A stretch of 58,296 bases of DNA from Alphaproteobacteria bacterium (GTDB taxonomy: Bacteria; Pseudomonadota; Alphaproteobacteria; Rs-D84), in NCBI GenBank assembly GCA_017513285.1, contig JAFXGD010000046.1, positions 1-58,296 of the forward strand, written 5' to 3'. Below are positions 24,223 through 32,216 of the stretch, in pieces (positions within the stretch are counted from its first letter, which is position 1; the number at the start of each line of letters is the position of its first letter). Position numbers and translations under genes: made by a program. Under the pieces are notes generated by a model that saw only the letters and a program-made list of their open reading frames with translations, did not search any database and was not told the DNA's origin.

Positions 24223-24315
24223 CATTGAAACCCGTTGAAACCAGATTAAAGATTAATTGTGCATTCGCATATTATTCCCAGATTTTGATTATGTTATTTA
24301 CCATCTTGGCAAATA

Positions 24316-24335
24316 ATGGTGGGTGGTATTGGACT
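24316..24335. repeat. att repeat (distal copy of the tRNA-Val 3' end)
   Basis: ATGGTGGGTGGTATTGGACT, identical to 32139-32158, followed by a degenerate T-arm-like sequence. Confidence 0.9.
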
Positions 24336-24495
24336 TTCTCCACGACCTAAAAAGTCCCAGGAATCTCCCACTTTTTTCATTTTTCCAGTACCTTTTTTCG
24401 TGGTTCCGGTACCAACGACAGCCACTCAGTGTTTTCGTAGGCAAAGTATATATTGAAAAATGGCGAATGTCAATAGAATGCCCTAAATTTTGTTC

Positions 24496-24568
24496 TAGTA
24501 AGTACTTTTTTAGTACATACTGAACCTTAGTATGTACTGATGATAGTAAGTACTTTTTAGTAAATACT
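24496..24568. repeat. Direct and inverted repeat cluster near the island end
   Basis: TAGTAAGTACTTTTT(T)AGTA(C/A)ATACT occurs twice (24496-24521, 24544-24568). Also a perfect 10-bp hairpin AGTACATACT/AGTATGTACT (24512-24538). Confidence 0.8.
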
Positions 24569-24693
24569 TCCAAATTTGCGCGCTTTATACAAGGTGGTTG
24601 ATTACGATCGGGGGCTTTTTACTTGGTTATTCCCCGCGATATATTTCCGAAGATTTTTTATAGTTCTAATCATCTGTATACGGTAGAAAAGTA

Positions 24694-24999
24694 ATGAATT
24701 TGACAGAACTAACAGTAAAAAAACTAGATCGCGACAAAGATATATTGGTTGGTACGTTTAGTTTGTGTTTTGAGAAAATGCTGCATGTTGACGGCTTTAG
24801 GGTATATTACACTTCTGCACCGCGGCATCAGTATTCAGTGTCTTTTCCGTCTAATTTTACAGTAGATAGCCCAAAAGTAAGAAAGCAAATCGTAAGTAAC
24901 ATCCTAAGACAAGTAGATCAAGAAATCGCGCGCCAAGAGATCAAACAGTACGAATTGAATGATAGTAAAATCATAACAACGCAAGAAAATAAAAAATAA
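24694..24999 (+). CDS. SpoVG-like small nucleic-acid-binding protein (tentative)
   Basis: 101-aa ORF. MNLTELTVKKLDRDKDILVGTFSLCFEKMLHVDGFRVY...SVSFPS parallels SpoVG MEVTDVRLRRV...AIASITLD..FVVHDIRVI...FVAMPS. Recognised by eye from memory. Confidence 0.4.
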   Translation: MNLTELTVKKLDRDKDILVGTFSLCFEKMLHVDGFRVYYTSAPRHQYSVSFPSNFTVDSPKVRKQIVSNILRQVDQEIARQEIKQYELNDSKIITTQENKK

Positions 25000-25031
25000 C
25001 AGTTCTATTATTTGAAAAGATAAAGAATCAG

Positions 25032-25143
25032 ACATTAGTGAAAGACAAATAGACTGATTTTTTACCTGGATACATTCACAAGATTTGCATAGAGTTTCAC
25101 TAATGTAACCCCACCAAGTTTTTGTGAATGGCTTGATGGGGTT
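25032..25143. other. Interlocking inverted repeats in an ORF-free region (candidate origin or structured RNA)
   Basis: 12-nt perfect IR 25032-25043/25095-25106; 9-nt IR 25073-25081/25122-25130; 12-nt IR with 1 mismatch 25107-25118/25132-25143. Confidence 0.6.
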
Positions 25144-25507
25144 TCTTCGTAGTCCGTAAAATCCCCCAAGCTACTATTTTTTGAACAATCCTGAACCATA
25201 GAGCCACGTTTGCTTAGCCGGCTTTTATATCGCATCGTGTCTCTGTAATTTACTCAGACAAAACTATGGGGTAAAAACGATGTAGACACAATAATTTTTC
25301 TATCTTATTGCCACCAAGCTTATAAAGGGATCCACCGCGGCAAAAGATATACAAACACTGATTAGCTGGCACTCTATAAGGGAATCATTGCGGCTCGGAA
25401 TCAGTAGAAATCTAAGAAAAATAGCATACAATTTCCACGTTGATGCAAGTTCTTTTTTTATTTTATTTCCCCCTAAAGTATAACACATAAAGCATAAGGA
25501 CTAAATA

Positions 25508-26116
25508 ATGACAGAAGAAGAATTACAAAGACAACTAGAATCTATACAACAAACTATATACAATAAAATTCCGCACGATACATCCACCTATTTTATAACT
25601 ATCACTTTACCTTATGAGTTCAAGACGTATGATATTGGTTGCTTCGCGGATAGAATGAAATATCTCTTGTCTAAATTTATAAAACACCTATTGAATTGTA
25701 AAAGACTGTGGATAGATAGTGTATATGATTTTGATGCCTTCTTTGAAAATGTAGACCAAACTGAACCATGGCATCTACACTTACTTGGAACATTTATAGA
25801 TCAAACAACGGGCGCGCAATTACCAAAAAACCTTATAGAAGAAACGATGCAAAAGGCTAGTTACAGATTCAAACAACATTACGGACTAGACAGAGAAATA
25901 AACTATAAAATAAAGCTTGTTCCTTACTCTGATATTCAAACTGTTATAGGCTACTGCACAAAAGAATTGATCCAAGGTAATGTGTTGTGTTCTGATCGTA
26001 TTTATTGCCCCAAGACCTTATTCAACCCCTTACCAAAACAACCAACTAAAAAGAAAAACCTAACCAAAACCCAAAGGAAAATTCGCAAGATAAAAAAACT
26101 GTGTGGGCTTAGCTAA
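25508..26116 (+). CDS. HUH-endonuclease Rep-like protein
   Basis: 202-aa ORF with an AAGGA SD. Motif I FITITL (aa 29-34), motif II HLHLL (aa 89-93), motif III YCTKE (aa 149-153), and a Lys-rich tail. Confidence 0.5.
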   Translation: MTEEELQRQLESIQQTIYNKIPHDTSTYFITITLPYEFKTYDIGCFADRMKYLLSKFIKHLLNCKRLWIDSVYDFDAFFENVDQTEPWHLHLLGTFIDQTTGAQLPKNLIEETMQKASYRFKQHYGLDREINYKIKLVPYSDIQTVIGYCTKELIQGNVLCSDRIYCPKTLFNPLPKQPTKKKNLTKTQRKIRKIKKLCGLS

Positions 26117-26166
26117 TATCCCGCGGTCAACTCCCATAAATATCAGCTAAGACACACAAACAACAA

Positions 26167-26352
26167 CTATAAATACCGCCTAATACCATCCGCTGTAAAA
26201 AGAATTGTCTCATAGCTATTACCGCGGACTATAACATCTCCCCCTTGGTAATAGGCTGTTTTTGCATTTTTGACTGTATAGAGATAATTTCCAGACAGAC
26301 TACGAATTATCACATCTTTGCCTACCCACTCAAAACCAACACCTATACTCAT
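26167..26352 (-). CDS. Hypothetical 61-aa protein
   Basis: Its start overlaps the stop of the upstream serine recombinase gene (ATGA). Beta-rich; no family recognised. Confidence 0.4.
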   Translation of the reverse strand: MSIGVGFEWVGKDVIIRSLSGNYLYTVKNAKTAYYQGGDVIVRGNSYETILFTADGIRRYL

Positions 26353-26921
26353 TTTTTATCCTTTTCTGGTTTTTTCATATAGTTATAAACGGAAGCTCTA
26401 CAAAGTCCAAATTTTTCAGCAACTTCTGTTATATGCATTTTCTTTTTGCGAACCAACTCTTTCAATTCTGTTATATCATCATCATCCAACTTATTTTTTC
26501 CACCTTTGAATTTTCCGCGGGCTTTGGCTATTGCGATTCCTTCTGCTTGGCGATTTTTTATCAATGCTCTCTCAAATTCCGCGATACTACCCAAAATTTG
26601 TAACATCAACGTACTCATTGCATTATCTTTCCCTGGTTCAAATCGCAAATTTTCTTTCACAAACACCACTGAACAATCTTTATCTGTGATTTCTTTTACC
26701 AATGACTGCAAATCAAACAAGTTTCTAGCCAATCTGTCTAAACTGTGGCATGTGATTTCATCTCCTGGTCTCAAATTACCCAACATAGCTACCAATTCAG
26801 GACGTTCTCTATCCTTACCGCTACATTTGTCAGTATACACGCGGTCAAAGCCTTTTTCGTCCAAAGTTTGCCTGTCGGTGTTTTGGTAAACTGACGACAC
26901 GCGGCAATATAAGAATTTCAT
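26349..26921 (-). CDS. Small serine recombinase (resolvase/invertase family)
   Basis: 190-aa ORF with a catalytic N-terminus (YCRVSSVYQNTDRQ), LDRLARN, AEFER and a C-terminal HTH. Confidence 0.85.
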   Translation of the reverse strand: MKFLYCRVSSVYQNTDRQTLDEKGFDRVYTDKCSGKDRERPELVAMLGNLRPGDEITCHSLDRLARNLFDLQSLVKEITDKDCSVVFVKENLRFEPGKDNAMSTLMLQILGSIAEFERALIKNRQAEGIAIAKARGKFKGGKNKLDDDDITELKELVRKKKMHITEVAEKFGLCRASVYNYMKKPEKDKK

Positions 26922-26934
26922 TTTTTTATCCTTT

Positions 26935-27013
26935 TGTCTAACCTAACTCTTTATATCTGTTTAGATTATACTGAATCGTGTCTAAAAGTCAAGAAAAAAA
27001 CTTAGTTTAGACA
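26935..27013. promoter_or_regulatory. Cluster of TGTCTAA-type half-sites (candidate recombinase binding / res-like site)
   Basis: TGTCTAACC (26935), inverted AATCTAAAC (26959-26967), TGTCTAAAA (26979) and inverted TGTCTAAAC (27005-27013). They form two inverted pairs upstream of the recombinase gene. Confidence 0.4.
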
Positions 27014-27242
27014 TTTTTTATTTGTATATTCTAAGTGTACCCATTTTGGACAATGCAAAAAACCATAAAAAAGCCTGTTTTATACATGCGCGCAGGATCT
27101 GTTTATAAAACATATGATAAATCGCTTATAATCGGACTATAGCGCGCTTTTTTCTCAAACACTACAAACTATACCAGAAAGCCGTTTTTTGATAAACTGG
27201 GGCAAATTTTATATTGCTTGATTTTTGTCGCGGTATTCAAAC

Positions 27243-27266
27243 AAAAACGTCCAGAAGGGACGTTTT
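27243..27266 (-). terminator. Intrinsic terminator of the methylase-nuclease operon
   Basis: ACGTCC-AGAAG-GGACGT with flanking A/T runs, 5 nt after the nuclease stop codon. Confidence 0.65.
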
Positions 27267-27270
27267 GTTA

Positions 27271-28470
27271 TTACTTATCGTGATTTTGCTTTGCTGTTAT
27301 ATCCGCGTGGCAATCGTGGCATAACATCAGACAGTTATCTATTGTCGTTTCGCCACCATCTATAAAGGCTACTTTATGGTGCGCTTCTAGTTCAGAAAAC
27401 GGCATTTCGCGTCCGCAACGTCCACCACATCTTTTACCTTGGTTCGCATAAGCCTGACGTTGTTGTTTATCACTGAATATACGATGCCATATCAATGTAC
27501 GATCTCCAGACAACACGTATTCATAAAAGCCACTCTTTTTCAACCCGTCAGGATCAACATTGTACAGGTCAAACAATCGTTTCAATTCGGCTTCTAATAC
27601 CGCGGGGTCGTACTGATTATTACCGTATTTGTTATATAATGTTCCCCAATCAATACTTTTCATTTCCTTACGATACTCTGGGAATGTTGTTTTTACCCAT
27701 TCTATGACAGACTTGTAATAAGTCCAAAGTTCATTTGCGTTTTCATCAAAACGATGTTGTGCCATGTAATCTTTTATCTCTGGATATTGATCTGATTTAG
27801 ATATGCGCCACCGTAATGCCAATTCTAACAATTCTTGACGATTTGCCGCGACAGCATCCTTATTTACCAACATGTGCCGATCATCATTATCGCAAAAAGA
27901 TATGCTCAATGCTTTGTTATTGGTTTTTTTAGAGAAATACTGTTTGGCATCTGATAACCATGATCCTGTATAATTCGCATTCAGCAATTCTTGTTCAGTC
28001 ATCTGTTTGCCGGCAATGTTTATAGTATGAAACCATTCTAATTTTTCATCATCCGTTCCATTACATAAATACACTTGCAACCGATAATCTAAAATCTCTT
28101 CCTTTTTCTCTGGCGATAATCCTTCAAAAGATTGATTGTTTTTCCCATTGAAATTGATTGCTATTGGGTTGCCATGTCCGTCATCGTTAGTAATAAATTG
28201 ACAGATTGAAATAATGCGTTGCTGCCCATCAATTACTTCGTATGTACCATCTGGATTGATTGCCCAATACATACTGTTCAGTGGTAATCCATTATAAACT
28301 GACATCATAACGCGATCACGATCATTTGGTTCATATACGAACGCGCGCTGATATGCTGGTCTTACATTCAAAGTTCCATGATAGGCAACAACACCGTTAT
28401 CGCCACTATCTTTATAATTTTTTACCAATTCACGAATAGTTATAACTGGTGTTGTTATTGTCATAGTCAT
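27271..28470 (-). CDS. DUF262 (ParB/GmrS-like) plus HNH nuclease
   Basis: 399-aa ORF with IDGQQRI near the N-terminus and a C-terminal HNH finger (HHKVAFIDGGETTIDNCLMLCHDCH). Confidence 0.75.
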   Translation of the reverse strand: MTMTITTPVITIRELVKNYKDSGDNGVVAYHGTLNVRPAYQRAFVYEPNDRDRVMMSVYNGLPLNSMYWAINPDGTYEVIDGQQRIISICQFITNDDGHGNPIAINFNGKNNQSFEGLSPEKKEEILDYRLQVYLCNGTDDEKLEWFHTINIAGKQMTEQELLNANYTGSWLSDAKQYFSKKTNNKALSISFCDNDDRHMLVNKDAVAANRQELLELALRWRISKSDQYPEIKDYMAQHRFDENANELWTYYKSVIEWVKTTFPEYRKEMKSIDWGTLYNKYGNNQYDPAVLEAELKRLFDLYNVDPDGLKKSGFYEYVLSGDRTLIWHRIFSDKQQRQAYANQGKRCGGRCGREMPFSELEAHHKVAFIDGGETTIDNCLMLCHDCHADITAKQNHDK

Positions 28471-28472
28471 TA

Positions 28473-29435
28473 TTATGCTCCTTGCTTTTTACGAATGATT
28501 ATTCTTCTGTACAATGCCTTTCCATTTAGATCTGGACCCCTGCCGCGCCACTCAACTCTATGATCATCTAAACCTAAAATTTCAAATTGTTCAGGATTAT
28601 ATTTATGCAAAAACGAAATAGGAACTCCCATTAGTCCATCATAATCCATTGGCATATTTCTAACAGTTCCAACTTCTATAGCATCATAATTATCGTACTT
28701 TGGGTACATTGATTCAAAGCCATGATATGTTTTCCCTGTTTCTAGTTTTTCGTTTCGTTTACTATGCGGCAAATTAGTAAACCATACAACACCAGCAACA
28801 AAAGCATATTTTACACCATTTTCTATTTTATGATATTGCTCATAATCGTCCGGTACCGCGAACCATCTGTTTGAACTGTCCATTGTCATGCCAAGCCATA
28901 CTTTATTTGCTTTTATCAATGGAAAAAATTCTTTATACGTTATTGCATTTTGATTTCCGATGATTATAAATTTCTTTTTGTATTCCATGAGCTGAGCCAC
29001 ATATTCCCTGAACAGCGAGAACGGTGGATTTGTTATTACTATGTCAGCCTGTTTCAATAATTCTATACATTCCGCGCTACGAAAATCCCCATCGCTTTTT
29101 AGTGGTATTTCTTCTATATCTTCACTGCATATAATGCCATCGCCAGTATTATCTTTGTTCAAAATATACATCGTTGATTTTTTGCCGGCTTCGTAGTGTG
29201 TGGCGATAACTTTTTTGATTCCGAATGCTTGAAAATTGTCCGCGAGATATTTTATAAAATTTGATTTAGGTGTTCCTTTGCCAATACCGTAATGATCATC
29301 ACAATTACAGTATATGACTTTGCCTTTGAAATACTTTGCATAGTTTACAAGCTCTTTTTTTATATCGTCATAGCTTGTATAAAATTCATCTTTCTTTGCT
29401 GTATTCGCGACAATAAGCCCTGTATTTTTTCTCAT
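28473..29435 (-). CDS. N6-adenine DNA methyltransferase, M.EcoRI-like family
   Basis: DEFYT, YCNCDD, GDGDFRS, ITNPPFSLFREY and GVPISFL blocks. Start set to ATG 29435 with an AGGA SD, whereas the track starts at an upstream TTG. Confidence 0.75.
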   Translation of the reverse strand: MRKNTGLIVANTAKKDEFYTSYDDIKKELVNYAKYFKGKVIYCNCDDHYGIGKGTPKSNFIKYLADNFQAFGIKKVIATHYEAGKKSTMYILNKDNTGDGIICSEDIEEIPLKSDGDFRSAECIELLKQADIVITNPPFSLFREYVAQLMEYKKKFIIIGNQNAITYKEFFPLIKANKVWLGMTMDSSNRWFAVPDDYEQYHKIENGVKYAFVAGVVWFTNLPHSKRNEKLETGKTYHGFESMYPKYDNYDAIEVGTVRNMPMDYDGLMGVPISFLHKYNPEQFEILGLDDHRVEWRGRGPDLNGKALYRRIIIRKKQGA

Positions 29436-29682
29436 ATTGTATTTCCTGGTATTCAAAAATTTGTTGTAAAATCTTCCCTGGAAATACTTACATAAACCAA
29501 CGTTTTGTTATGGATTGCGCGCTTTCAAGTGAGCAATCTATTTGAATATGAAAGAATGCCTGTTTTCTGGGATTTATAAATTTGGACTTTTTATAATCTA
29601 ACCATTTCAAACAAGCTAAAAATATGTTGATTTTATCGTTCTATAAAAAAACAAGGATTTTTACAACATAAAGGTATAAAAA

Positions 29683-30282
29683 ATGGCTATAATTGGGTAC
29701 ATCCGCGTGTCTTCAAACAAGCAATCATGTGAACATCAAAAACACGAACTAACACAATTCGCGGCACAACAAAATATCAATATAGATCAGTGGGTAGAAG
29801 AAACAATATCATCACGAAAGCCGCTAAAGAAACGTAAACTAGGCGAATTATTAGAAACAATACAACCAAATGATATTCTAATCGCGGCAGAAATCTCGCG
29901 GCTTGGGCGTTCTTTGTTAGAAGTTATGCATATTTTGGAAATTTGCCTGAATAATAATTGTCAGGTGTGGACGTTGAAAGAACATTATAGGTTAGGAAAC
30001 GATATTCAATCAAAGGTTATGGCTTTCGCTTTTGGTCTTTCTGCAGAGATAGAACGTAACCTTATAAGTCAAAGAACAAAAGCATCTCTGGATAACATTC
30101 GCGCAAAAGGTAAACGATTGGGTAGACCTGTTTCTGCTCAATCTAAAAAACTAAAATTAGCTAAAAATAAAAAACGCATCCGGAAATTACTAGATGCGGG
30201 AATATCAAAATATAAGATTGCGAAATTGATGGAAGTACAACCTATGACTATCACAAGGTTTGTTTCGCGAATGGGGTGGTAA
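29683..30282 (+). CDS. Small serine recombinase (resolvase/invertase family), second copy
   Basis: 199-aa ORF with GYIRVSSNKQ, ISRLGRS, SAEIERNLISQRT and a C-terminal HTH. Only distantly similar to the 26349-26921 product. Confidence 0.85.
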   Translation: MAIIGYIRVSSNKQSCEHQKHELTQFAAQQNINIDQWVEETISSRKPLKKRKLGELLETIQPNDILIAAEISRLGRSLLEVMHILEICLNNNCQVWTLKEHYRLGNDIQSKVMAFAFGLSAEIERNLISQRTKASLDNIRAKGKRLGRPVSAQSKKLKLAKNKKRIRKLLDAGISKYKIAKLMEVQPMTITRFVSRMGW

Positions 30283-30306
30283 GATGTGTTTTTCCTACCA
30301 CCCCAT
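30271..30306. terminator. Hairpin between convergent recombinase and integrase genes
   Basis: ATGGGGTGGTAAG / CCTACCACCCCAT, with 11 of 13 positions paired. Confidence 0.5.
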
Positions 30307-30311
30307 AAAAC

Positions 30312-32006
30312 CTAATCAATGTTGATGTGTGGTTTGTATTTTCCGCGCTTAGTGCTGATCTTTTCTGGATTGATATAAAGATCTGGGATTATTTTTTTCC
30401 AATAATCAAGATGTAAAATTTCTTCTGGATACTCAATTCTATCAACAGCTTCTTTGATTTCTTCTGTAGAGTATTTTAGATAGTTTTTTTGCCGTATAGT
30501 GCTTCCTTCCCAACCAATAATGTCATCAACAATGGAATCGTCAATCTTTAGTCTTTTTGTGTGTTTGCTTATTGTGTCGCGGAAAGAATGAAAAGAGTAT
30601 TTATTACCATCACGTGATACGATTCCTAACTCATTCTGTATAAAGCGTTCCCATGGTGCCATAAATTTTTTAGCAGGATCGCCCTTTGAACTAGCTGCGC
30701 GGTCAAATATAAAATCTGTCTCTTGCGCACCCATTTTTTTCTGTCGTGCCTTTATCATATCTAAAAAACCAAAATCTAATAATTGTTTTGCAATAGCTAA
30801 TTTTCGTTCACTAGCTTTATTTTTTCTGTTTTTCTTGGTATGGTTTTTACGGAACCAAATACAATGAACACCATCTTTTTCAATAAAATCTCCGAACTGC
30901 AAAGTGACAGCTAAATTTGTTCTTGAACCAGAAAACAATGCAACCAAACATGCTAAAAATTCATCAGGATGTGTTTTGAAGAAATCATATTTTGGGTCAA
31001 AAATTTTTGCTAATTGTTCTTCGGTAAACGTGCCAAACTCTTCTTTTTCGCCCGCTGGTGTTTCTGGTAACCTTTCTGTGTAATAAAGTAATTTTTCCCC
31101 TTTGTAAAATTCTGGTTCTTTCTTATGAGCCTGCTTTATAACCTTACGCAATACGTCCATTGTTTTGTTTTTAGAATCATTGTTTAGATTGGTTCTGCTA
31201 GTTAGCGCTTCAACTATTTTCTTTATCACGTTTTCATTGTTCAATTTAGAATAATCATCGTCCAGAGATAGATTTACCGGTTTCAATAATGTTGCTAATA
31301 TCCGCGGGAATCTCTCTTTGATTGTATCACTATTACGTTTCAGAGATTCTGTTAGAATTTCTCTTATGGTATTTTGGGGCATTTGCATGCTTGGATATTG
31401 TGGCATGTATTGTTTGTTGATTGCGGGCATTACCGGTATCATAGTTTGTGTGCCGTATACCATTTGTTCCCAAGACGTGTATTGTGGTGTAAATAATTGT
31501 TGATGTTGCTTGAATTGATACTGTATCGCTGGGTTGGTCTTTGCGCGAATAAAATGGATCAATATGTGAAGCTTGTTGCGTTCTAATTCTGCAGCCATGC
31601 CCGCGGAACATCTTTCTGTCAATGTAGCGCTGTTTCCAGTTTTGCTTAGTCTTAGTATTTCTTCACATTTGAAATATTTATCAATAGCTTGAGTGTCCGA
31701 TAAATTTTTATATTCGTTTTCTATAATGCGCGCTCGTTCTTCATCGGTTTGTGCAATTTGATTTAGATATTGATCAATAGTTACTGGTTTAGTGGTATCC
31801 AGTTCCACATTATTTATTATTTGCATAGAAAGCTCCTTTTTCACTAATGCGAGCCTTTGGATAGCCAAATTTAGATCGCTTGTTCCTAGGCTCTTTTTTA
31901 TAGAACTGAACTTTCCATCACTTTTTTTGAAAGAAATGCGAAAATAATAAATTTTTTTTCGTAAAACTAAGTTCTTTATATATACATGTCTCACTTTTGG
32001 TACCAC
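30312..32006 (-). CDS. Tyrosine recombinase / integrase (unusually long)
   Basis: 564 aa with a GTG start. Has an N-terminal arm-binding-like segment (YYFRISFKK..GK..SIKKSLGTSD). C-terminal catalytic residues are SGSRTNL (R), HSFRDT (HxxR) and GWEGST...NYLKY (W...Y). Confidence 0.85.
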   Translation of the reverse strand: MVPKVRHVYIKNLVLRKKIYYFRISFKKSDGKFSSIKKSLGTSDLNLAIQRLALVKKELSMQIINNVELDTTKPVTIDQYLNQIAQTDEERARIIENEYKNLSDTQAIDKYFKCEEILRLSKTGNSATLTERCSAGMAAELERNKLHILIHFIRAKTNPAIQYQFKQHQQLFTPQYTSWEQMVYGTQTMIPVMPAINKQYMPQYPSMQMPQNTIREILTESLKRNSDTIKERFPRILATLLKPVNLSLDDDYSKLNNENVIKKIVEALTSRTNLNNDSKNKTMDVLRKVIKQAHKKEPEFYKGEKLLYYTERLPETPAGEKEEFGTFTEEQLAKIFDPKYDFFKTHPDEFLACLVALFSGSRTNLAVTLQFGDFIEKDGVHCIWFRKNHTKKNRKNKASERKLAIAKQLLDFGFLDMIKARQKKMGAQETDFIFDRAASSKGDPAKKFMAPWERFIQNELGIVSRDGNKYSFHSFRDTISKHTKRLKIDDSIVDDIIGWEGSTIRQKNYLKYSTEEIKEAVDRIEYPEEILHLDYWKKIIPDLYINPEKISTKRGKYKPHINID

Positions 32007-32102
32007 CTGAATGTTTCATGGTTGTTTTTTATGCTGGAAAACATTGAGATGGCGGGAATCTAAGAATGATCAAATTTCGCGGTTCGGTACCATGGATGAT
32101 TC

Positions 32103-32131
32103 AAAAAATAAAAAATCCCAGATAACTGGGA
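32103..32131 (-). terminator. Hairpin plus T-run immediately downstream of tRNA-Val (island-borne)
   Basis: TCCCAG-ATAA-CTGGGA with an A-run on the plus strand (T-run on the minus strand). Confidence 0.5.
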
Positions 32132-32138
32132 AAAATTC

Positions 32139-32158
32139 ATGGTGGGTGGTATTGGACT
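32139..32158. repeat. att repeat (within the tRNA-Val 3' end)
   Basis: Identical to 24316-24335. Confidence 0.9.
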
Positions 32159-32216
32159 CGAACCAACGACCTTTACGATGTCAACGTAACGCTCTAACCA
32201 ACTGAGCTAACCACCC
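32140..32216 (-). tRNA. tRNA-Val (GAC)
   Basis: Reverse complement GGGTGGTTAGCTCAGTTGGTTAGAGC-G-TTACG-TTGACAT-CGTAA-AGGTC-GTTGGTTCGAGTCCAAT-ACCACCC-ACCA. Confidence 0.92.

Follow-up and report, generated by a model that had tools for sequence, protein, structure and literature searches.

The DUF262 domain is a ParB/Srx-type module that hydrolyses nucleoside triphosphates (NTPs), and a review from 2023 lists only GmrSD, BrxU, SspE, Menshen, Dazbog and PD-T4-2 as DUF262 defence proteins, with SspE being coupled to a self-modification system (PMC10952713). In GmrSD, BrxU and SspE, the DGQQR pocket of this domain is the site at which NTPs are bound and hydrolysed, and it governs the activity of the nuclease (PMC4619093, PMC10952713). 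The EcoRI restriction-modification (R-M) system, in turn, combines an adenine methylase with an endonuclease of the PD-(D/E)XK type. Here we analyse a gene pair that brings the two worlds together: a gene for an EcoRI-family methylase (M) is followed by a gene for a nuclease with a DUF262 and an HNH domain (R), both located on a stretch of 58,296 nucleotides from an alphaproteobacterium (contig JAFXGD010000046.1, in the following called the window). The pair is most probably a two-gene R-M module with a protective methylase. The obligate linkage of the two genes, their co-divergence and their fusion in some genomes suggest that R would cleave unmodified DNA at or near a defined site and be blocked by the methylation that M sets, and these three properties are to be expected if R kills the cell in the absence of its cognate M.

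The pair shares features with each of the described systems and differs from all of them. (i) Like EcoRI, it is a two-gene mobile module, and the methylases belong to the same Pfam family, share 46% of their residues and have the NPPF, DEFYT and GVPI(S/T)FLHK blocks in common; in contrast, the nuclease of the window is unrelated to the PD-(D/E)XK enzyme R.EcoRI, and M precedes R here, whereas R precedes M in EcoRI. (ii) As in GmrSD and BrxU, the N-terminal domain of R is of the ParB/Srx-like DUF262 type and contains DGQQR, and the C-terminal one is a His-Me-finger nuclease domain. However, this C-terminal domain is a zinc-bound HNH domain (PF01844) in R and DUF1524 in GmrSD and BrxU, R has about 400 rather than about 600 residues, and R comes with a methylase in every locus with enough upstream DNA, whereas GmrSD and BrxU stand alone and attack modified cytosines; moreover, Foldseek gave no significant structural match over the full length of R. 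(iii) As in the SspABCD-SspE system, a DUF262 nuclease is genetically coupled to the modification of the own DNA. Here, this modification is predicted to be N6-methyladenine (m6A) made by one methylase, whereas it is phosphorothioate made by four proteins in the Ssp system; the nuclease domain is HNH rather than DUF1524, and the mechanism of SspE, in which phosphorothioate stimulates the NTPase and leads to nicking, is hypothetical for R. (iv) With HNH Type II enzymes and the HNH domain of McrA, R shares the beta-beta-alpha-metal HNH site and a Cys4 zinc site. Characterised HNH Type II enzymes such as KpnI, Hpy99I and PacI are small and are not known to have a ParB/DUF262 NTPase domain. (v) The likeness to NsnA of Menshen and to PD-T4-2 concerns a PADLOC model match in the DUF262 domain only; both work with different effectors, OLD/TOPRIM nucleases among them, and have different partner genes. 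In the Menshen study, it was speculated that ParB-DUF262 domains beside methylases may target non-modified DNA. A previous reading of the window from its letters (the original prediction) had regarded the co-occurrence of a DUF262 nuclease and a methylase as a paradox. This view equates DUF262 with dependence on modification, and it does not hold since DUF262 is not confined to GmrSD and BrxU but is also present in SspE, Menshen, Dazbog and PD-T4-2, and since R has no DUF1524 domain.

The methylase and nuclease genes

The two genes and the elements that belong to them are arranged as follows:

28473-29435, minus strand: M, predicted EcoRI-family N6-adenine DNA methyltransferase of 320 residues, stop codon TAA at 28473-28475
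27271-28470, minus strand: R, 399 residues, with an N-terminal DUF262 domain, a helical middle part (about 170-340) and a C-terminal HNH finger predicted to be stabilised by zinc
27970-28365, minus strand: DUF262/GmrSD_N domain of R (residues 36-167), with RPAYQR at residues 37-42 and DGQQR at residues 81-85 (nucleotides 28216-28230)
27295-27420, minus strand: HNH domain of R (residues 351-392), with the predicted catalytic residues H364-H365, N379 and H388 and the zinc ligands C348, C352, C384 and C387
28471-28483, minus strand: junction of M and R, with AAGGAG inside the 3' end of M, the M stop codon, a gap of 2 nucleotides and the R start codon ATG at 28470
27244-27266, minus strand: hairpin with a 9-bp stem, a 5-nucleotide loop and runs of A and T at its flanks, 5 nucleotides past the R stop codon
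29436-29682: intergenic region from M to the recombinase gene res2, the presumed site of the promoter of M and R

The assignment of M to the EcoRI methylases had been made before on the basis of its motifs, and it was confirmed by profile searches: M matches the Pfam family EcoRI_methylase (PF13651, E=1.3e-112, 377 bits at a cutoff of 26, residues 16-299) and, over the full length of the model, MTase_II of PADLOC (PDLC03297, E=1.1e-105, 352 bits). The identity to M.EcoRI, taken from the E. coli plasmid pU90-3 that also encodes R.EcoRI, extends over the full length. The catalytic motif NPPF corresponds to residues 136-139, and M contains the motifs DEFYT, YCNCDD, SDGDFRS, ITNPPFSLFREY and GVPISFL. 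The motifs quoted previously for M and R are thus present, with the exception of GDGDFRS, which is the version found in M.EcoRI. A sequence search of the PDB with the methylase identified no relative. The ORF (open reading frame) of 320 codons from ATG 29435 to its stop codon is present as had been proposed. The mechanical list of ORFs offers TTG 29456 as an alternative start, resulting in a protein of 327 residues; we prefer ATG 29435 because the alignments of homologs start near this codon, because AGGAAA is located 8 nucleotides upstream of it, and because the product of 320 residues has already been called: exactly this protein is an existing gene call on seven public contigs.

For R as well, the 399-residue ORF on the minus strand and the two domains of the original prediction were found again, the domains by profile searches (GmrSD_N/DUF262, PF03235, E=2.8e-21, residues 36-167; HNH, PF01844, E=6.9e-9, residues 351-392). 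The motif IDGQQRI belongs to the DUF262 domain and HHKVAFIDGGETTIDNCLMLCHDCH to the C-terminal HNH finger. The claim that the partner of M is not an EcoRI-like PD-(D/E)XK enzyme is supported by the lack of similarity between R and R.EcoRI (BLASTP E>0.5). An alignment of 111 homologs with identities down to about 33% revealed that the predicted catalytic residues are intact: H365, the general base, and N379, a structural residue, are invariant in all 111 proteins, and the positions 364 (D or H) and 388 (H or N) vary as is usual for HNH/HNN enzymes. The zinc ligands C348, C352 and C384 are also invariant, and C387 is present in 88 of the 111 homologs. The N-terminal domain is conserved with the same strictness: all five residues of DGQQR (D81-R85) as well as P38, Q41 and R42 of RPxYQR occur in 111 of 111 proteins, and R37 in 108.

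The AlphaFold2 model of R (predicted local distance difference test, pLDDT, 83.9; predicted template modelling score, pTM, 0.76) consists of an alpha/beta N-terminal domain, a helical middle part (residues 170-340, approximately) and a beta-beta-alpha HNH finger with strands at 362-365 and 380-383 and a helix at 385-397. In this model, the C-terminus has what defines a His-Me finger HNH domain, i. e. the His, the Asn and the metal-binding His/Asn on a beta-beta-alpha fold. R aligns to the HNH domain of McrA (PDB 6ghc) at E=9e-5 when searched as a single sequence and at 1.7e-7 when searched as a profile. No other PDB entry matched better by sequence, and both kinds of search of this database with R returned HNH domains only. 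Foldseek gave weak matches at the level of domains, to HNH domains (McrA, Gme HNH, Cas8-HNH) and, for the N-terminal domain, to ParB-CTP, sulfiredoxin and the N-domains of SspE (E=0.7 for SspE).

Among the PADLOC models, REase_II (PDLC03418) covers nearly the complete protein (E=2.6e-100, 334 bits, residues 3-386 against profile positions 1-364 of 372), whereas the match to mREase_IV is weak (23 bits) and limited to the HNH part. The N-terminal 190 residues match the models for NsnA (1.8e-24) and PD-T4-2_A (9e-15). These matches bear on the idea that R is a modification-dependent Type IV nuclease like GmrSD or BrxU, directed against foreign modified DNA, and that M is an independent or orphan methylase which recognises other sites and is simply carried along with R. 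The membership of the N-terminal domain in the GmrSD_N family fits this idea, as do the relation of the HNH finger to McrA, which is a Type IV enzyme, and the weak mREase_IV match. However, the DUF1524 domain that defines GmrSD, BrxU and SspE was not detected in R by the Pfam scan, and the best full-length model is that of a Type II enzyme.

M and R look like a self-contained operon because they are separated by only 2 nucleotides with the AAGGAG sequence at the junction, and because a hairpin and a T-run follow the R stop codon. The AAGGAG ribosome-binding site is located 7 nucleotides upstream of the R start codon, and this arrangement is consistent with translational coupling of the two genes. 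The hairpin is the probable terminator of the operon; no terminator was found between M and R, and the two genes are presumably co-transcribed. The presumed promoter region contains no match to the sigma-70 consensus.

Linkage of methylase and nuclease across genomes, plasmids and phage

The distribution of the pair was studied in two scans for R, each with one genome per species. The first scan resulted in 30 loci, three of which are cut by contig ends; in all 27 loci with upstream DNA, the gene that directly precedes R on its strand encodes an EcoRI-family methylase. For the second scan, a profile of distant R representatives was used. It matched at least 537 species-level genomes, and 80 loci were kept. 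The methylase lies upstream of R in all 77 of them that have enough upstream DNA, and it is directly adjacent in 75. Taken together, the methylase precedes R in 104 of 104 loci with enough upstream DNA, and a solitary R was not seen among them. The loci belong to Alphaproteobacteria, Clostridia, Bacteroidota, Spirochaetes, Campylobacter, Actinomycetota, Coriobacteriia, several phyla of the Candidate Phyla Radiation, Endomicrobia and others. Cultured carriers include Ligilactobacillus agilis La3 (pLa3_1), Macrococcoides canis Epi0082, Flavobacterium psychrophilum DSM 3660, Campylobacter concisus Lasto28.99, Adlercreutzia sp. ZJ176 and Sulfitobacter indolifex DSM 14862.

The two proteins have also changed together. 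The pairwise identities of M and R co-vary across 28 loci (Mantel r=0.89), a value that was reached in none of 2000 permutations. Moreover, two independent metagenomic contigs (P0155, 18.4 kb, and P0271, 11.9 kb) encode a single chain of 688 residues in which EcoRI_methylase, GmrSD_N and HNH are fused. This fusion would be a form of the M-R module that resembles Type IIC.

The M-R module is mobile. Small plasmids carry a Rep gene, the pair in the same order and little else, as is expected of an addiction-type R-M system. In addition, the pair is present on conjugative and resistance plasmids of Aeromonas, Macrococcoides and Enterococcus, on megaplasmids and in a Flavobacterium phage. Decayed copies were found on plasmids of Paracoccus and Microbacterium.

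These observations bear on the two options that the original prediction had left for the pair. The type-II-like R-M system with a protective methylase is strongly favoured by the conserved synteny, the co-variation, the fusions and the small plasmids. The second option, a modification-dependent nuclease next to a methylase with which it does not overlap in specificity, is the Type IV idea introduced above. Such an enzyme does not need a cognate methylase, yet R was not found alone in any of the 104 loci, and its co-divergence and occasional fusion with M would not be expected either. Together with the lack of DUF1524, this makes the option very improbable.

EcoRI-family methylases also have other partners. 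In E. coli and Leuconostoc, they occur with EcoRI-type PD-(D/E)XK endonucleases in the order R then M; elsewhere, the methylase is fused to Dcm or accompanied by a small ORF of another kind. In the tree of the methylases, those linked to EcoRI-type endonucleases form one small clade, and those linked to DUF262-HNH nucleases make up the bulk. This variety of partners is the normal shuffling of R-M modules. The Dcm fusion is encoded on plasmid p9 of L. plantarum (L040, NZ_CP060181.1): an EcoRI-family adenine methylase and a Dcm-type cytosine-5 methylase form one protein of 700 residues, followed by two hypothetical ORFs.

As a catalogue entry, the pairing is not new, a finding that the original prediction had named as one of its refutations: PADLOC holds Type II models that match both proteins along their length, RefSeq annotates the pair on many plasmids, with R labelled only as 'DUF262 domain-containing protein', and a homologous pair has been noticed on a plasmid of Sulfitobacter indolifex (PMC9025767). 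The source of the PADLOC model PDLC03418 is given as 'REBASE'; its further provenance could not be established. The note on the S. indolifex plasmid is the only direct mention of such a pair that we found in the literature. In a preprint on the classification of methyltransferases, 19 REBASE gold-standard sequences were left unclassified, and the EcoRI_methylase group is part of this set; according to the preprint, M.SsoI (identical to M.EcoRI) is the only one of the 19 with demonstrated activity. The pair of the window thus belongs to an R-M family that is already catalogued and for which we found no biochemically studied member in the literature.

Proposed mode of action and the search for the recognition site

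We infer that methylation by M protects the DNA, that R cleaves unmethylated DNA, and that this activity depends on NTPs. M would place N6-methyladenine at a specific site of the host DNA, and R, encoded downstream and presumably translationally coupled, would use its C-terminal HNH site to cut DNA that does not carry the mark. The fold of R is not that of a classical Type II enzyme. By analogy to GmrSD, BrxU and SspE, the DUF262 domain would most likely bind or hydrolyse a nucleotide in order to gate or assemble the HNH domain, and the central helical region, the DUF262 domain or both may read out the site and its methylation. With M in first position, the methylase may be produced ahead of the nuclease after transfer to a new cell, so that the module can establish itself there safely.

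The organization of the locus, i. e. separate M and R genes adjacent to each other in one module on the same strand, corresponds to a Type II system. Type II enzymes require only Mg2+ and no NTP for cleavage. The strict conservation of DGQQR and RPxYQR suggests that R is regulated by nucleotides, and it would therefore be outside the strict definition of Type II. It is tempting to go one step further and to regard R as an NTP-gated enzyme in which a ParB/Srx switch reads the methylation set by M, being either blocked or activated by the mark, and controls the HNH domain; such an enzyme would belong to a class outside Types I-IV, and its site might be unlike GAATTC. We consider this extension tentative and rather doubtful. 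A special case, which we regard as unlikely, is a mechanism like that of SspE: the DUF262 domain would recognise the m6A made by M on the host DNA, and the stimulated NTPase would enable the HNH domain to nick or cleave unmarked invader DNA. Self-methylation would then activate the enzyme, either in addition to a simple block or in place of it, and this would be a new mechanistic class rather than a Type II system. The invariant DGQQR pocket fits such a mechanism. SspE is the one characterised DUF262 nuclease with genetic coupling to a self-modification system, and phosphorothioate on the host DNA both stimulates its NTPase and switches on its nuclease (PMC9646914, PMC10952713); obligate linkage and co-divergence with M fit sensing equally well as simple protection. 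On the other hand, R cuts, as predicted, with a classical HNH domain (PF01844) instead of DUF1524, the structural similarity to SspE is marginal, and the M-first order and the carriage on plasmids in the manner of an addiction module are hallmarks of ordinary protective R-M systems.

Several observations weigh against a protective R-M module. First, on plasmid B of Microbacterium sp. No. 7 (L036, NZ_CP012699.1, 29068-30818) M is truncated by IS256, whereas the R ORF is full-length and retains the catalytic residues. This can be explained if R is silenced by the (polar) loss of the promoter, or if it is tolerated without the methylase. Second, Foldseek found no full-length structural relative of R in the PDB (best E=0.05, a weak match at the level of domains). 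Third, we found in the literature no biochemical characterisation of any member of the family, be it cleavage, toxicity, assignment of a methylome motif to the gene or a phage assay. The other two observations concern the recognition site. In S. indolifex, the methylase of the plasmid-borne pair is 52% identical to M.EcoRI, but PacBio data demonstrated that GAATTC is unmethylated; a strain-specific GGCATC motif was left unassigned, and the authors proposed a possible novel R-M system (PMC9025767). The copy in S. indolifex is thus either silent or of another specificity because the expected GAATTC is not methylated there. The same pair is among the homologs identified here (H10, H32), and its R protein is 41% identical to that of the window. 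The EcoRI-linked methylases form a clade of their own, this DUF262-linked homolog leaves GAATTC unmethylated, and the pair of the window may differ from EcoRI in its specificity as well. Finally, the analysis of site avoidance, for which we used the window, the integrative island that carries the pair and, after masking of the R-M genes, a pool of host neighbourhoods amounting to 667 kb, did not reveal a clear target: none of GAATTC, CAATTG and GGCATC is outstanding in these samples. The island contains no GAATTC at about 3-4 expected sites, and in the pooled DNA the ratio for GAATTC is unremarkable (0.69-0.86).

If the protective reading in its conventional form is true, the pair is another mobile R-M system with an influence on gene flow in a gut alphaproteobacterium that has received little study, and its interest is no more than local. 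If R is gated by NTPs, a widespread mechanistic class of R-M systems would have gone unrecognised, as at least 537 species-level genomes of very diverse phyla carry the family, which also occurs on plasmids and in phages. We know of no characterised methylase-protected restriction enzyme that makes use of a strictly conserved ParB-like nucleotide pocket. A requirement for NTPs would mean that DUF262 is a general switch module rather than a marker of modification-dependent restriction, and the recognition site and the NTP requirement, once worked out, could add a new class of enzymes to the restriction toolbox.

The integrative island and its host

The pair is part of an integrative island with the following features:

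24311-32158: integrative island of about 7.8 kb with low GC content between metG and accC, flanked by direct repeats at 24311-24335 and 32134-32158
30312-32006, minus strand: tyrosine integrase
29683-30282, plus strand: serine recombinase res2, divergent from M
26349-26921, minus strand: serine recombinase res1, encoded downstream of R, with a separate promoter-like site at 26992-26965 (11 of 12 matches)
25508-26116, plus strand: small ORF of 202 residues, no family match
24694-24999, plus strand: small ORF of 101 residues, no family match
26167-26352, minus strand: small ORF of 61 residues, no family match

The direct repeats (family D4) correspond to the 3' end of tRNA-Val(GAC) (32140-32216, minus strand), and their att core of 20 identical nucleotides is found at 24316-24335 and 32139-32158. 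The GC content of the island is 0.34-0.37 as compared to about 0.42. The integrase scores just below the threshold for Pfam Phage_integrase (1.6e-5, 25.2 bits at a cutoff of 27.1) and matches the integrases of PHROG 1 (1.3e-16). Both serine recombinases are part of the context and do not belong to the R-M mechanism. Res2 matches Pfam Resolvase (2.5e-32) and comes close to the NCBIfam model 'master DNA invertase Mpi' (269 bits at a cutoff of 272). For the three small ORFs, no match was obtained with Pfam or PHROG, and for the ORF of 202 residues the scans with NCBIfam and PADLOC were empty likewise. The start codon of the ORF of 61 residues overlaps the TGA stop codon of res1 (ATGA), suggesting translational coupling of these two genes.

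The host of the island is a Candidatus Enterousia-like gut alphaproteobacterium, and the island also occupies this site in a related Enterousia metagenome-assembled genome (L001). The two R-M ORFs of the window are 96% and 89% identical to their copies in L001, and res2 is 93% identical. At the nucleotide level, the segment from R to res2 (27271-30282) is 83% identical, whereas the rest of the island reaches 67-75%, metG 69% and accC 80%. This similarity is consistent either with a recent exchange of the cassette, i. e. a horizontal replacement in an older island, or with strong constraint. It also bears on the question of whether the pair of the window might be a decaying or inactive remnant, for instance an orphan methylase with a dead nuclease. 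Decay does occur on the plasmids of Paracoccus and Microbacterium, and the unmethylated GAATTC of S. indolifex would agree with an inactive copy. In the window, however, both ORFs are full-length and contain every conserved catalytic residue, their identity to the L001 copies is high, and the segment is better conserved than the flanking host genes, so that we give this explanation hardly any credit.

An invertible, phase-variable cassette was considered as well: an inverted repeat of 16 nucleotides (26399-26414 and 29578-29593) brackets the R-M genes. This candidate was rejected since such a repeat is at the level of chance (one as compared to a mean of 2.35 after shuffling) and since L001 lacks conserved arms of this repeat. 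In the vicinity of the Mpi-like res2, no convincing invertible segment was found. The repeats D16, I2 and I20 at the starts of the recombinase genes were rejected as recombination sites, as they reflect a shared context of ribosome-binding sites.

The DNA of the host is strongly depleted of GATC, with 44 sites observed and 217 expected in the window (z about -15) and z about -27 (-26.5) in the pooled Enterousia-like loci. CGCG and GGCC are also depleted. The depletion of GATC points to long-term pressure by other restriction systems, e. g. systems that target GATC, which is unrelated to the M-R pair.

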